Below, piece after piece: positions 1 through 13,367 of a DNA stretch of 36,413 nt; within the stretch, counting starts at the first letter, position 1; the number at the start of each line of letters is the position of its first letter. The notes beneath the pieces were generated by a model, which was not told where the DNA came from, made no database searches, and saw only the letters and a program-made list of their open reading frames with translations. This DNA comes from a virus (Duplodnaviria > Heunggongvirae > Uroviricota > Caudoviricetes). A program made the position numbers and the translations under genes. The DNA lies in IMG/VR virus record IMGVR_UViG_2724679172_000015. One strand, written 5' to 3'.

Positions 1-633
1 TCATTCATCGTTCGTTGCACGAACGCGCCTGATCTCCACTCTGGCAATCTGATCTGCTGGAATATAGGTTGCCAGAGCTCCCCAGTACTTATCAACCACG
101 CCTTTATACTCTTCCCATTCGTTACTGCCTGAAGGGCTGCTGTGCGTGACGTAAAGAACCATATCGCCTTTATTCCCCAGGGTAAACGGACCGTTAGGCC
201 ACTCTTCAAAGTTCCCTGGCAGCCGTGACATCATACCGGAACCATCGCGAAGAATCACTCTGACCTCGGTAACGCTGAAGCCTGTTTGATCAAACATTGC
301 CTGCCATGCTGAGCTGGTATCGTCAGACCATGAAACATCATTATTCCACAGTAATCTGTACATCCATTTGCGACCGTACCTGCGCCACCACGCACCGCAT
401 GTAACGGCACACAGAAGTGCTGGTGGTGTTGCCAGCCAGGCATTCAGACCTGCCCACATAACAGCCTGGTAAGCCATCATTGCTGTCAGGCCAAAAATCA
501 GCGAAGAAAAAGTCACCTCAATGGGCTTGTGGTGATCCTTCAGTCCCACATTCGCAATAAAATACCCAATATAGCCACTGGTCAGGGTCACCAGTGTTGC
601 CCATGGCAGATTTAACAACGAAACGTCAAACAT
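1..633 (-). CDS. Hypothetical membrane protein (about 3 N-terminal TM helices plus soluble C-terminal domain), 210 aa
   Basis: ORF in the 1..711 frame; best start is ATG at 633 preceded by AGGGAG 5 nt upstream; stop at 1-3; hydrophobic segments LVTLTSGYIGYFIANVGL, FSSLIFGLTAMMAYQAVMWAGL. Confidence 0.5.
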   Translation of the reverse strand: MFDVSLLNLPWATLVTLTSGYIGYFIANVGLKDHHKPIEVTFSSLIFGLTAMMAYQAVMWAGLNAWLATPPALLCAVTCGAWWRRYGRKWMYRLLWNNDVSWSDDTSSAWQAMFDQTGFSVTEVRVILRDGSGMMSRLPGNFEEWPNGPFTLGNKGDMVLYVTHSSPSGSNEWEEYKGVVDKYWGALATYIPADQIARVEIRRVRATNDE

Positions 634-670
634 ATTTTCTCCCTGCATCCTGAATACTAAAGAGAGAGCA

Positions 671-708
671 TAAAAAAAGCACGGTAAGGGGTCTACCGTG
701 CTTTTATA
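671..708 (-). terminator. Intrinsic terminator hairpin between mor-like gene and the downstream membrane-protein gene (possibly bidirectional)
   Basis: Perfect 9-bp inverted repeat AGCACGGTA / TACCGTGCT (678-686 and 694-702) with 7-nt loop, flanked by an A7 run on the plus strand (U-run on the minus transcript) and TTTTATA on the other side. Confidence 0.5.
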
Positions 709-747
709 CAATAAGGAGATTTTTGAAAGGACTTTAACAAGCAGGAA

Positions 748-1146
748 TTATCTGGATTTGTTAACGTCTTTCGTCTCCTCTGGCAGATCTTCATCAAACA
801 ACCTGCCCTGCATCCGATCCAGTTCTTCTTTTCTGACCCGCTTAACCACGCTGTAGACCCACTGAAGCGAAACACCAAACTTGCGGGCCAGTTCGTGGTG
901 GTTGCGTCCGTTAAACTCCCTGAAGATTTCCCGGTCGCGCTGACTGACCTTCCATACCATGCCCATCGGGAAATAAACGTTTTGCCCGCCCCAGACCTGC
1001 ATCATTCGGTTCGCGACGGCCTGACCAATCTGGTCGGCAATTGCGGGCTCAATATCAATAATCTCGCGAACGGTCTCAGAGGTATGCTGTGCCAGCTCCA
1101 CCAGGAGTTCCGGCCCTTTACTTCGAAACTGATTCAGGTCGCTCAT
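748..1146 (-). CDS. mor: Mor/C-family transcriptional activator (middle-operon regulator)
   Basis: 132 aa; C-terminal motif FNGRNHHELARKFGVSLQWVYSVVKRVR matches the HTH region of Mu Mor as I recall it (WNDFNGRN..L...YGV....VYKAIRR); RBS GGGAG before ATG. Confidence 0.7.
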   Translation of the reverse strand: MSDLNQFRSKGPELLVELAQHTSETVREIIDIEPAIADQIGQAVANRMMQVWGGQNVYFPMGMVWKVSQRDREIFREFNGRNHHELARKFGVSLQWVYSVVKRVRKEELDRMQGRLFDEDLPEETKDVNKSR

Positions 1147-1567
1147 GTTTTACTCCCGCAGCTCTGTGCTGCCACTTCTTCAGTTTCTCAATAACACTGC
1201 TTGCCTGTTCAGTATTGAGCCAGCGCAGGGCGCTGATGCCCGTTTCCCGCTTGATCCACCGCGCTAATGCATTTTCTGAACGGTCACGAACAATGCCGGC
1301 AGCAGCCATTTCAAGCCATAGCGCACGAATTTTCCTGGACTGCGGATGGTTATCCAGCGGTAAACCGGAGCTGGCTTTTCTGGCTGGTTTAACGCGAAAG
1401 CCTTTCTTTTTCATGGATTCCAGCACGCAGTTTAGTTGTGTGGTATCCATTCCTTTGGTTGAGGCTTTACCGGTCAGCCCCTGTAACATCTGGCGGTAGG
1501 TGTCTTCATCCATACCCAGTTCATTACGGGCAATATGGATAAGCTGTATCAGGCGTTTTTTCTGCAT
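1118..1567 (-). CDS. Mu gp16/GemA-like protein (DUF1018-type), 149 aa
   Basis: ORF with AGGAGA RBS; N-terminal pattern LIQLIHIARNELGMDEDTYRQML resembles Mu-like prophage gp16 family; position upstream of mor as in Mu. Confidence 0.5.
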   Translation of the reverse strand: MQKKRLIQLIHIARNELGMDEDTYRQMLQGLTGKASTKGMDTTQLNCVLESMKKKGFRVKPARKASSGLPLDNHPQSRKIRALWLEMAAAGIVRDRSENALARWIKRETGISALRWLNTEQASSVIEKLKKWQHRAAGVKHERPESVSK

Positions 1568-1568
1568 A

Positions 1569-1775
1569 TCATCTCCTTTTTTTCAGTCTGTCGGCAACAA
1601 TGTCGGTTGCAGCTGGCAGGGTGACTGGCCAGAACAACATGACGGCGGTCATGTACAGGATGTAATGCGCGGTGTCGTAGTGCCTGCCATAGCCCAGGGA
1701 ACGATGAAGTCTTGCGCTGCATGATCCTGCGTACATATACCAGAAAAGAAAACAGACAATGGTTTCAGTAGTCAT
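1569..1775 (-). CDS. Small hydrophobic membrane protein, 68 aa
   Basis: ATG at 1775 preceded by GGAGG; two hydrophobic segments; the longer 120-aa ORF N-terminus has no RBS. Confidence 0.4.
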   Translation of the reverse strand: MTTETIVCFLFWYMYAGSCSARLHRSLGYGRHYDTAHYILYMTAVMLFWPVTLPAATDIVADRLKKRR

Positions 1776-1995
1776 TCTGAATACCTCCCCATTCGATATG
1801 AATATTACGGGCAGCAATGACAGGGTCGTTATTCCACCATGCACCTGACATGTATTTTTCAACCTGTTCGCGTCCGGCAATAACACCAATTGTGATCCCC
1901 GGCCTGACGTTCTTAAAAAAGGCGCGGGCAAAAAGGTATCTGGCAGATATTCGGCAGGCTTTTAATTTCCGGCTGTTACCTGATAGCGTAATCAT
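1765..1995 (-). CDS. Hypothetical protein, 76 aa
   Basis: ATG overlapping upstream stop (ATGA coupling), GGAGG RBS. Confidence 0.4.
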   Translation of the reverse strand: MITLSGNSRKLKACRISARYLFARAFFKNVRPGITIGVIAGREQVEKYMSGAWWNNDPVIAARNIHIEWGGIQNDY

Positions 1996-11741: not shown

Positions 11742-12171
11742 AATCTGTAAGCCTTTTACAATTATTAAAAATATGGCAGGCTAGTCTGGTCTCGCGAGAC
11801 TGACTGAACCTCGGTCGGCTCACAGCCACTTCTGTGGGACGATGGCCAGCCCGGATTTCGGGTACCGGGCTGGTCGTTCTTTCATCGTCATAGTGAAGCT
11901 TGGGAATACTCGACTGCTATTAATGCAGTTTACTGATTCGGTAATTTAACCTGAAAGAGAATGTAGCCAATGAATGATAATAAACATAATCCAGATAAAC
12001 CGTGCACCCGGAAGTCAGGGTTTGACAATCGTCCGCGCCCGGCACGAGAAAGTATCAAGGACGATTCTCTGGAGTATGGCGAATACAGTCCTCTGGACTA
12101 CGGTGGATACAAGGGTATTATTGTAACTAACTCATTTTCACCGCCAGTACGCCCGGAGAAAGGAGACAACA

Positions 12172-12720
12172 GTGAAGACAAATCTGGCTCGTGAATGGGA
12201 AGGCCTGTTGTTTGATGTCAGACGTTCCGTTCGTTACCATAATCGTCGCAGAGCATGGTTTGATCGATTGGATCAGGCCACAAATGTATTGTCCCTGATT
12301 TTTGGTTCTACTGCGATCTATGGTGTTTTGTCCCAGAGCAATAAGAATTTAGCCATGCTTTCTGCTGCTGTTGTGACGATTTTTTCAGCCATCAATCTGG
12401 TTGTTGGTTCATCACAGCGAGCTCGTGCTCATTTTGATTTCGCTCGTAAGTTTTTTGAGCTGGAGCAAAAAATGATTCTGGTGCCAGAAATCACAGAGGA
12501 AAGCCTGCGGACGATAACTTCGGAACGTCTGTCTATTGAAAAAGACGAACCGCCAGTTCTTCGCGTTCTTGACAGTATCTGTTACAACGAGCAGATACTG
12601 TCAATGGATTACCCTAAAGACCAGATGATTGTGGTTGGATTCTGGCAGCGTCTGTTTTCCCCGGTTCTGGATTTTCAGGCAAGTAAGCTACGAAGAGTTA
12701 AAGATACGAGCAATGTCTGA
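12172..12720 (+). CDS. Hypothetical 2-TM membrane protein, 182 aa (candidate moron/exclusion effector)
   Basis: GTG start with AGGAGA RBS 5 nt upstream; arginine-rich N-terminus then two hydrophobic helices (VLSLIFGSTAIYGVL, LAMLSAAVVTIFSAINLVVG) and a soluble C-terminal region. Confidence 0.55.
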   Translation: MKTNLAREWEGLLFDVRRSVRYHNRRRAWFDRLDQATNVLSLIFGSTAIYGVLSQSNKNLAMLSAAVVTIFSAINLVVGSSQRARAHFDFARKFFELEQKMILVPEITEESLRTITSERLSIEKDEPPVLRVLDSICYNEQILSMDYPKDQMIVVGFWQRLFSPVLDFQASKLRRVKDTSNV

Positions 12721-12796
12721 GTTAACTGCTGAATAATGATCTGGTGTCAGGGCTCCACCATTCCGCCTGATTATGTCCTTAATGCATTTCCAGCGT

Positions 12797-12810
12797 GCTT
12801 TAAAATCCTT
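12797..12810. repeat. Direct repeat copy 1 (GCTTTAAAATCCTT)
   Basis: Identical 14-mer at 12797-12810 and 13308-13321 (16 of 17 identical when extended), bracketing the P-loop gene. Confidence 0.7.
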
Positions 12811-13237
12811 ATCCCGTCTGAATTCCAGTTACTACCTGGCGTAACTCCATCAAAACGAGCTCCTGATCGTAAACTGTTATCAGCGCCGCAATGGTGGCAT
12901 GCAGTGCATCGGGCAGTATCCAGGGTTGCCGGCCCGTAGGGCATATAACATCCAGCAGCTCATTCGTCCGACAGATACGCTCCTCGCCGTATGACAACAG
13001 GCCCTGTCCCGTGTATTCCTCTAGCCTGATCACTGTGCCACCCCGTGGCTTCTGCCAGGTCGTCAGATCATCGCCATTCATACGGCGCTCATTCTCCACG
13101 TCAGCAGCATCGACAATGACGCTGTTTCCGAGTTCCTGTTTCACCATCTCTTCTATCCGCGCCAGTACGTAACTTTTACCGCTGCCCACAGGACCGGACA
13201 CAGTGACAGTGATGACCGGATTCAGTGTGTGCGTCAT
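12809..13237 (-). CDS. Small P-loop NTPase-like protein, 142 aa
   Basis: GAGGAG RBS 8 nt before ATG; Walker A GPVGSGKS near N-terminus; candidate Walker B VIVDAAD. Confidence 0.6.
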   Translation of the reverse strand: MTHTLNPVITVTVSGPVGSGKSYVLARIEEMVKQELGNSVIVDAADVENERRMNGDDLTTWQKPRGGTVIRLEEYTGQGLLSYGEERICRTNELLDVICPTGRQPWILPDALHATIAALITVYDQELVLMELRQVVTGIQTG

Positions 13238-13307
13238 ATCGTATTCTCCTCTGTGAATAATTCATCGTTTATCCTGCACATCCCGTATCCTCGGCTCTCT
13301 TAACGCG

Positions 13308-13321
13308 CTTTAAAATCCTTC
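13308..13321. repeat. Direct repeat copy 2 (GCTTTAAAATCCTT)
   Basis: See copy 1; lies about 50 bp upstream of the first lysis gene and about 70 bp upstream of the P-loop gene start. Confidence 0.7.
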
Positions 13322-13367
13322 GCGCCCTGTATTTGTGATGCTGTCTCCACCAAACAAGGAGACACAC

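Follow-up and report, generated by a model that had tools for sequence, protein, structure and literature searches.

Early genes transcribed away from the late operon in a prophage-derived sequence: an ordinary arrangement among BcepMu-like and B3-like transposable phages

Gene content and strand organisation

The window analysed here is a 36,413-nucleotide stretch of Caudoviricetes DNA (IMG/VR record IMGVR_UViG_2724679172_000015), whose minus strand carries, between 748 and 9003, genes recognised through Pfam for Mor, GemA, Gam, a B-like ATPase, a transposase and a ner-like HTH protein. A CI-type repressor gene diverges from these early genes at ~ 9.08 kb and is followed by a variable accessory island, while the lysis/late operon begins on the plus strand at ~ 13.3 kb. 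AT skew is negative over ~ 1–9 kb and mostly positive across the late region, and the cumulative GC skew is lowest at 8–9 kb, both of which fit a switch of coding strand near 9 kb. A preliminary description of this DNA had proposed such an arrangement, with ner, A, B, gam and mor leftward and the repressor (9077–9508) and island (9631–13237) lying between them and the late operon, and Pfam families and gene strands bear it out. The early region comprises:

1–633, minus: left-end accessory gene of unassigned function (phrog_12870, E = 1e-133), flanked by the mor terminator and the left end of the prophage
675–705, minus: terminator-like hairpin, 13-bp stem then T run, directly downstream of mor (consensus scan)
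748–1146, minus: Mor/C-family transcription activator (PF08765, E = 1e-43)
1118–1567, minus: GemA-like protein (PF06252, E = 1e-40)
1569–3674, minus: block of small genes that together correspond to the semi-essential early region
1992–2711, minus: DUF2786/DUF7168 protein, in this block
2902–3201, minus: NTP pyrophosphohydrolase-like protein, in this block
3772–4302, minus: Gam host-nuclease inhibitor (PF07352, E = 6e-41)
4602–5795, minus: transposition ATPase in the B position, AAA_22/ExeA type (AAA_22, E = 4e-20)
5779–7548, minus: DDE transposase with an rve core (sole Pfam hit), Tn552/IS1604-like
7552–8463, minus: DUF3102 protein, equivalent to BcepMu gp10
8474–8782, minus: winged-helix transcriptional regulator (phrog_1368), equivalent to BcepMu gp12
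8779–9003, minus: small HTH protein in the ner/cro position (weak HTH_35, E = 0.007; phrog_8503 and phrog_925 HTH)

The HTH gene is the first of the leftward early operon and mor the last, and the hairpin at 675–705 probably marks the end of this operon, judging from its stem and T run. A single Mor/C-family gene was found among the 30 ORFs scanned (1–16280). The accessory gene at 1–633 is annotated by PGAP in relatives that are identical across that stretch.

The gene labels proposed initially held for mor and gam, whereas the reading of A as a MuA homologue did not: by its sequence, the transposase falls outside the MuA family. A tblastn search with it against 50,697 phage records returned 69 hits, from which phage Mu was absent and in which the only Escherichia records were PhiKM and Phi06_2974 B. 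Identity to the transposase reached 98% in PhiKM, 93% in KP12 and Phi06_2974 B, 68.5% in BcepMu gp09 and 57% in B3-like phages. The B label is retained for an ATPase of ExeA/AAA_22 type, which PGAP names 'ExeA family', and the ner role of the 8779–9003 protein is assigned mainly by position. An rve/Tn552-IS1604 transposase unrelated to MuA together with an adjacent AAA+ partner, a hallmark of the BcepMu group, is present here.

Between the two gene clusters lie:

9004–9091, no strand: AT-rich divergent control region in the gap between early operon and repressor, with inverted repeat TGAATAA-N6-TTATTCA
9077–9508, plus: CI-type lysogeny repressor (PF07022, E = 1e-17)
9631–13237, no strand: accessory island, content varying between relatives
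9631–10524 and 10460–10921, plus: two island genes of unassigned function
10974–11741, minus: Dam-type N6-adenine methylase, in the island
12172–12720, plus: BcepMu gp19 homologue, in the island at the syntenic position
12809–13237, minus: truncated phrog_3787 gene, in the island

The control region is a candidate operator, and the repressor likely starts at the ATG at 9092. GC content is 41% at 9–11 kb. The island proteins at 9631–10921 had no match in Pfam or PADLOC. Across the island proteins, PADLOC gave a strong match for the methyltransferase only, with weak ones of 2TM-effector to the gp19-like protein and of SngB (E = 0.007) to the ORF at 12809–13237. This slot is filled differently in the window, in KE50/GIMC1410, in VG38 and in Ecol_448, and the exact island was found in no complete E. 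coli genome (best match 78% coverage, 97.7% identity). Scanning 8.4–13.8 kb for the sigma-70 consensus gave fewer hits than in shuffled sequence and was thus uninformative.

Late genes and promoter-like motifs

The late region opens with a lysis cassette, located directly after the control and accessory region and followed by Mu-like head and P2-like tail genes, as in the BcepMu group. In that group the cassette consists of holin, SLT transglycosylase and an Rz/Rz1 region, of which the first two were identified here. Head and tail gene names were taken from tblastx collinearity and from PGAP names in a relative 98.8% identical across the late region. The features used below are:

13301–13317, plus: late-promoter-like motif TAACGCGCTTTAAAATC, ahead of the gene for the holin
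13335–13718, plus: holin, start of the late operon (E = 2e-41; PGAP start 13368)
13721–14461, plus: SLT transglycosylase endolysin (Pfam)
15726–16280, plus: Mu gp27-like protein (Pfam)
20495–20511, plus: late-promoter-like motif, ahead of the gene for the head protease/scaffold
26412–26428, plus: late-promoter-like motif, ahead of the genes for tail assembly and tape measure
32713–32729, plus: late-promoter-like motif with one mismatch, upstream of the baseplate gpW-like gene

This 17-nt motif occurs in four plus-strand copies, all intergenic, against 0.12 expected, an enrichment that is partly circular because the pattern was built from three of these four hits; the copy at 32713–32729 played no part in building it. 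The motif is kept where the flanking sequence diverges.

The TerL of the window (438 aa) was considered as a truncated mark of a defective prophage, a reading rejected on its full-length alignment to the other alleles (~ 25% identity) and on its occurrence in KE50 and GIMC1410, which carry the same allele. On these grounds, it is an allelic replacement.

Prophage ends and insertion sites

Comparison with homologous loci indicated that neither prophage end is present in the window, consistent with the preliminary description, which had proposed looking for them on both sides of it. By comparing three insertion sites, we located the ends in Escherichia coli KE50, GIMC1410 and VG38, where the whole unit of 38.0–38.8 kb occupies three distinct chromosomal positions, inside fliC, adjoining fadM and adjoining yegV, flanked by the 6-bp target duplications TCTGAG, CCACGA and TTTACC, respectively. 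These ends and duplications are thus read from relatives, whose left part is 97–100% identical to the window and whose island is different. Each of the three copies has 5'-TG...CA-3' ends that enclose both the early and the late modules. The left end itself is situated 361 bp outside the window, counted from position 1, and the right end past 36413.

In these loci, each end carries two G(A/C)GATAAAT repeats spaced 23 bp apart. The earlier expectation of 5-bp duplications and MuA-binding sites gives way to 6-bp duplications and BcepMu-type end repeats; TG...CA termini with repeated sites of transposase-binding type, and integration into numerous unrelated host positions that each acquire a short target duplication (here three sites, 6 bp), are what characterises the BcepMu group. 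Exact terminal inverted repeats were also considered and rejected, the reverse complement of the left terminal 9–19-mers being absent at the right end; the two ends have in common only TGA and the G(A/C)GATAAAT repeats. Within the window, neither terminal sequence was found within 3 mismatches, and the end-repeat core has no copy.

Prophages of this type are common. Matches to window positions 1–1500 were detected in 640 of 5426 complete E. coli genomes, about one in eight, at differing coordinates across the 640. The clean 6-bp duplications and many chromosomal sites of close relatives imply active transposition.

A proposed scheme of regulation and transposition

The following scheme would account for these features, its promoter, operator and terminator roles being read from sequence only. 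The repressor would bind the divergent control region of ~ 70–90 bp and keep the leftward early promoter off. Upon induction, the early operon would yield the rve/Tn552-type transposase and its AAA+ partner, which would act on the repeats at both TG...CA ends and move the whole 38-kb unit by a presumably replicative transposition that leaves 6-bp target duplications. BcepMu-like phages are characterised by replicative transposition, their virion DNA having random host DNA joined to either end. As the last early gene, mor would then supply a diffusible activator, and this single Mor-family protein probably turns on in trans the four plus-strand late promoters predicted from the 17-nt motif, and with them the lysis, head, tail and baseplate genes. 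With the transposase acting at the ends and Mor in trans, the early module could face either way, and its orientation relative to the late genes would be mechanistically irrelevant.

Alternative explanations of the layout

The preliminary description had considered the orientation of the early genes unusual, and had proposed a distinct architecture, a rearranged or defective prophage, or two adjacent prophage-derived modules. A recent inversion of the early region of a Mu-type prophage in this lineage, leaving a rearranged and possibly defective element, would fit a layout unlike that of Mu and an island that is mosaic next to the junction and holds the truncated gene at 12809–13237. We regard it as very unlikely, since the same layout recurs among virion-derived phage isolates of Burkholderia, Escherichia and Pseudomonas, the transposase is not of MuA type, the expected genes are all open, and close relatives reside at many chromosomal sites with clean 6-bp duplications. 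An assembly mis-join at ~ 9 kb could mimic such an inversion, but has nothing specific in its favour and is hardly conceivable given that the ner-repressor and island-holin junctions recur in hundreds of independently finished genomes, as well as in the phage records.

The remaining alternative, two adjacent elements of which one contributed the early/transposition module and the other the late/structural module, draws on the divergent transcription of the modules and on the low-GC island that separates them. It is extremely improbable: at each of three independent sites, one TG...CA pair with matching 6-bp duplications surrounds the two modules together, the island carries a syntenic BcepMu gp19 homologue, and the window is devoid of internal end sequences and end-repeat motifs, including between 9.5 and 13.3 kb. 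The observed layout is neither a rearrangement nor two elements.

We therefore consider that the window very probably lies inside a single transposable prophage of Enterobacteria, intact-looking and of BcepMu type (Bcepmuvirus-like), which has the normal layout of its lineage. Leftward, this normal order runs from an early promoter through ner, A, B, gam, gemA and mor to the left end; rightward, it runs from the divergent switch through the repressor, accessory island, lysis, head and tail genes to the right end. Among transposable phages of the BcepMu-like and B3-like kinds, leftward early genes are ordinary and published, and related complete phages show this orientation as a normal family trait (PMC2771037, PMC5977238).

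Implications

As a discovery, an inverted early operon amounts to little, being the textbook organisation of BcepMu-like and B3-like phages and of a prophage type common in E. coli. For annotation, a difference from Mu is no reason to flag such a prophage as rearranged or to divide it in two, and the search for its ends should rely on 6-bp duplications and repeats of BcepMu type, not on 5-bp duplications and MuA sites. Two modest leads are the conserved late-promoter-like motif and the variable island beside the repressor.

The repressor is co-directional with, and directly upstream of, the hypervariable island, so that slot genes could share the repressor transcript in lysogens. It is conceivable, though we find it doubtful, that the inverted layout is non-neutral in this way and that the slot serves BcepMu/B3-type transposable phages as a dedicated hotspot for lysogenic conversion or anti-phage defence. 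The same degree of doubt applies to a separate idea, in which a late-promoter-like motif before dam would give the methylase a function analogous to that of mom, the late, C-dependent gene of Mu.

Comparison with known transposable phages

In phage Mu, early, middle and late genes run in one direction, with the early operon facing the late genes and the repressor leftward. The element and Mu are both transposable temperate phages, with the Mor/C, GemA, Gam and Mu gp27-like Pfam families, gp28-31-type head genes (by annotation of the window's relatives), a divergent repressor/early-promoter switch, TG...CA ends and a late-gene cascade in common, and E. coli relatives of the window have an invertible tail-fibre segment resembling Mu G. 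However, the element departs from the Muvirus criteria of one-direction early-middle-late transcription, a MuA-family transposase (to which that of the window has no detectable relation) and 5-bp target duplications (6 bp in the three homologous loci). Mu also has separate Mor and C activators, against the one Mor/C-family gene found in the window (1–16280), and the element's tail genes are P2-like, unlike those of Mu.

The distinct architecture suggested initially proved to be that of Mu-like phages of other hosts, namely BcepMu, phiE255, Escherichia phage PhiKM and the B3-like Pseudomonas phage JD18, in which the strand pattern recurs. B3-like phages (Beetrevirus; JD18/JBD18, JBD25) likewise have an inverted early operon, with mor leftmost and A/B on the minus strand, and the plus strand carries the repressor together with the lysis and late genes; their transposase is 57% identical, whereas their siphovirus tail genes and accessory genes are different. 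The inversion is explicitly stated for them (PMC5977238). BcepMu-like phages are defined by a bottom strand that carries the early, regulatory and transposition genes and a top strand that carries the others, with lysogeny control at the interface (PMC2771037), and the window has this typical two-cluster organisation.

PhiKM (PQ738613), placed by GenBank in Bcepmuvirus and represented by a partial, permuted assembly, has an equal layout and 96% nucleotide identity to the early region of the window (megablast match from 788). Klebsiella phage KP12 and Escherichia phage Phi06_2974 B also have an equal layout, with 87% identity across the early region. All three carry other alleles of the repressor-holin island, the left-end accessory gene and TerL; the accessory gene of window 1–633 itself is lacking in PhiKM and BcepMu.

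Burkholderia phage BcepMu, whose source paper is reportedly that of Summer et al. 2004, J Mol Biol 340:49, is collinear with the window by tblastx from ~ 0.8 to ~ 35 kb with matching strands (minus/minus, plus/plus); in its record, genes 1–16 are on the minus strand except small gene 14, and genes 17–52 on the plus strand. BcepMu and phiE255 equal the window in gene order and strand pattern end to end, with transposases 68.5–69.4% identical at the amino acid level, and have in common with it the ExeA-type B protein (BcepMu gp08, ~ 69%), the DUF3102 protein, Mor (BcepMu gp01, 56%, identical strand), GemA, the CI-type repressor at the strand switch (BcepMu gp17, equal position and strand), the gp19 homologue, the holin/SLT endolysin cassette (BcepMu gp21-22, collinear with 13335–14461), Mu-like head genes and P2-like contractile tail genes. 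BcepMu also has an analogous repeated 18-mer ahead of its holin and protease genes, and TG...CA termini with two end repeats at 23-bp spacing, as in the homologous E. coli loci. It differs in having SSB, HU and DUF3164 genes annotated where the window has Gam, in island content, in a TerL only ~ 24% identical, and in lacking the invertible tail-fibre segment and serine recombinase of the E. coli relatives. Protein identities are mostly 30–80%, and the high genome-wide nucleotide identity of the strict ICTV Bcepmuvirus criterion was not found, megablast detecting no similarity to BcepMu. Kinship to BcepMu at the family level is clear, genus rank being a matter of taxonomic convention.

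Gene organization and strand switch

The ORF map, combined with Pfam scans of 30 ORFs up to position 16280, bore out the gene and strand picture of the preliminary description, namely leftward early genes and a rightward late series. The early genes form an uninterrupted minus-strand series spanning Mor through the ner-position HTH protein, and a trend change at ~ 9 kb in AT skew and cumulative GC skew fits the strand switch. A single Mor/C-family gene was found among the scanned ORFs; the record of the Burkholderia phage BcepMu also annotates only one.

Features of the early region, accessory island and start of the late series (ORF map and Pfam)
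748-1146, minus: Mor (PF08765, E=1e-43)
1118-1567, minus: GemA
between GemA and Gam, minus: small genes in a row, one encoding a DUF2786/DUF7168 protein
3772-4302, minus: Gam
4602-5795, minus: AAA_22 ATPase, B position
5779-7548, minus: rve-domain transposase, 589 aa
7552-8463, minus: DUF3102 protein
8474-8782, minus: winged-helix regulator
8779-9003, minus: HTH protein, 74 aa, ner position
9077-9508, plus: CI-type repressor (PF07022), divergent from the early genes
10974-11741, minus: Dam-type methylase, in the low-GC island
13335-13718, plus: holin, first of the late series
13721-14461, plus: SLT endolysin
15726-16280, plus: Mu gp27-like protein

A layout shared with BcepMu-like and B3-like phages

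The leftward early genes are not new: BcepMu-like and B3-like transposable phages are known to be built this way. By megablast, region 1-13367 matched Escherichia phage PhiKM at 96% identity, and Klebsiella phage KP12 and Escherichia phage Phi06_2974 B at 87%. In the BcepMu record, mor is gene 1 at the left end of a minus-strand series continuing with GemA, gp08 (B-like), gp09 (transposase), gp10, gp12 and gp16 (HTH), while the plus strand carries gp17 (repressor), gp18-20, holin, SLT endolysin, Rz/Rz1, head genes and P2-like tail genes. Tblastx revealed that the window and BcepMu are collinear from ~ 0.8 kb to ~ 35 kb, minus against minus and plus against plus. The same strand pattern was observed in the records of PhiKM and of the Burkholderia phage phiE255 (permuted, starting at the small terminase gene), and in the B3-like Pseudomonas siphovirus JD18, whose minus strand bears genes 1-19 (mor through an HTH gene) and whose plus strand bears genes 20-52. 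This layout, with the lysis cassette next, was already described for BcepMu-like phages by Lavigne et al. (PMC2771037), and the inverted early operon of B3-like phages is likewise published (PMC5977238). The preliminary description had set the orientation apart from that of canonical Mu, but would count it as unremarkable if related complete phages displayed it as a family trait; BcepMu, phiE255, PhiKM and JD18 do, in agreement with the literature, and a reading as an anomaly is unsupported.

Two of its gene labels also need correction, among them that of the transposase, named after its Mu counterpart. The protein contains only the rve core, no Mu-transposase domains were detected by Pfam, and phage Mu was absent from its 69 tblastn matches among 50,697 phage records. 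Identity reached 98% with PhiKM, 68.5-69.4% with BcepMu and phiE255, and 57% with B3-like Pseudomonas phages. The BcepMu transposase has been placed, as a distant member, in the Tn552-IS1604 family and described as unrelated to MuA (Lavigne et al., PMC2771037).

Element ends and insertion sites

Prophages of this type are common in E. coli: window 1-1500 was matched in 640 of 5426 complete genomes, at many different coordinates. Ends were mapped on three full E. coli loci, with the prophage interrupting fliC in strain KE50, adjoining fadM in GIMC1410 and adjoining yegV in VG38. Alignment of the three left junctions placed the left end outside the window, 361 bp before position 1, with the sequence TGATCAGACATGAGATAAATGAAGGGGGATCCGTGAGATAAATAACG, and the right end of the relatives reads ...GCATTTATCGCGCGGCGCATCA; the window's own copy is expected to start with TGATCAGACATGAGATAAATG... 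and to finish with ...GCATTTATCGCGCGGCGCATCA. Perfect 6-bp duplications (TCTGAG, CCACGA and TTTACC) flank the three copies, whose lengths are 38,007 bp in KE50 and GIMC1410 and 38,771 bp in VG38. At both ends, the repeat G(A/C)GATAAAT occurs twice, 23 bp apart, the pair at one end being inverted relative to the pair at the other. The BcepMu ends are arranged alike: G(A/C)GATATTT/GATAAAT stands there at identical offsets from a terminal TGAAG.

Because one pair of ends with 6-bp duplications encloses both modules, early and late genes belong to one TG...CA transposable unit, which at all three loci contradicts the earlier suggestion that two adjacent elements might be involved. A search of the window interior found no sequence resembling either end and no copy of the repeat core.

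In KE50, the prophage lies close to the 5' end of the flagellin gene fliC, presumably abolishing motility. At this junction, the host bases beside the duplication repeat the seven terminal bases of the phage, TGATCAG, a coincidence.

The accessory island

Between repressor and holin, the island (9631-13237; GC 41% at 9-11 kb) is mosaic and hypervariable, its contents differing among the window, KE50/GIMC1410, VG38 and Ecol_448. In KE50 and GIMC1410 it holds genes for a nucleoid-associated protein and a 401-aa protein together with dam, and VG38 and Ecol_448 have other gene sets; the window's exact version occurs in no complete E. coli genome (best match 78% coverage, 97.7% identity). A gp19 homologue at 12172-12720 is syntenic with BcepMu gp19 (tblastx). 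The ORF 12809-13237 looks truncated, since it matches only positions 1-137 of the 242 of the phrog_3787 profile, and was probably cut at the point where the gp19-like segment took the place of other sequence. Among the island proteins, the methyltransferase was the sole strong PADLOC match. Two uncharacterised proteins (297 aa and 153 aa; 9631-10921) are co-directional with the repressor. The island is an ordinary moron/accessory slot, neither host DNA nor a two-element junction, and this hypervariable slot directly downstream of the repressor constitutes a modest lead.

Regulation and candidate late promoters

The AT-rich control region (9004-9091) includes the inverted repeat TGAATAA-N6-TTATTCA. 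Comparison with Mu and lambda-type switches suggests that the repressor would occupy this region and block the leftward early promoter. The last gene of the early operon is mor. A 17-nt plus-strand motif, TAANNYNNWTTAAWATC, occurs exactly at 13301-13317, 20495-20511 and 26412-26428, and with one mismatch at 32713-32729, each time in an intergenic gap preceding lysis, head-protease, tail or baseplate genes. Chance expectation is 0.12 matches, but the pattern was derived from the first three copies, which leaves the fourth as the one independent match. Despite replaced flanks, the motif persists before the holin in GIMC1410 and before gpW in VG38 and PhiKM. Analogously, BcepMu has an 18-mer, TAAAGCCGATTAAAAGAC, in exactly two copies, preceding its holin and protease genes. 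On sequence grounds, the TAANNYNNWTTAAWATC copies are probably Mor-dependent late promoters; four such putative promoters would parallel the four C-dependent late promoters of Mu. A diffusible Mor-family activator would switch them on and the transposase would act at the element ends, so the direction of the early operon would have no mechanical bearing on the lytic programme.

A further one-mismatch copy (11932-11916, minus strand) lies upstream of dam and faces it, recalling the mom gene of Mu, which is late and C-dependent. The candidate late-promoter motif, including this copy, is another modest lead.

Left-end gene, head module and tail fibres

Between mor and the prophage left end lies an extra gene (phrog_12870; 1-633, minus strand), which both BcepMu and PhiKM lack. 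It is set apart from the early operon by a strong terminator-like hairpin directly 3' of mor (705-675, minus strand). In the late series, TerL (16277-17593, plus strand, 438 aa) is only ~ 25% identical to TerL of PhiKM, VG38 and BcepMu, whereas the flanking genes display 90-98% nucleotide identity. KE50 and GIMC1410 share the window's allele. This short TerL is a full-length alternative allele, reflecting allelic replacement in an otherwise conserved head module. The expected genes are all open in the window, and nothing in its sequence points to decay of this copy. The tape-measure gene contains two adjacent ~ 260-bp units (28772-29324, plus strand), roughly 92% identical to each other, seen as offset self-matches against the KE50 gene.

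The window stops within the tail-fibre region (~ 35000-36413). In relatives, an invertible segment comes next, in which the window may already end, then a serine recombinase gene and then the right end. Alternative tail-fibre/assembly genes in opposite orientations, with the serine recombinase, were observed in KE50 (locus L006, 5356-7126) and two further E. coli prophage loci (L007, 36628-38398; L008, 36939-39150). This invertible segment is Mu G-like, and BcepMu reportedly lacks one (PMC2771037). That such a Mu G-like tail-fibre segment is found on a BcepMu-type backbone is a modest lead.
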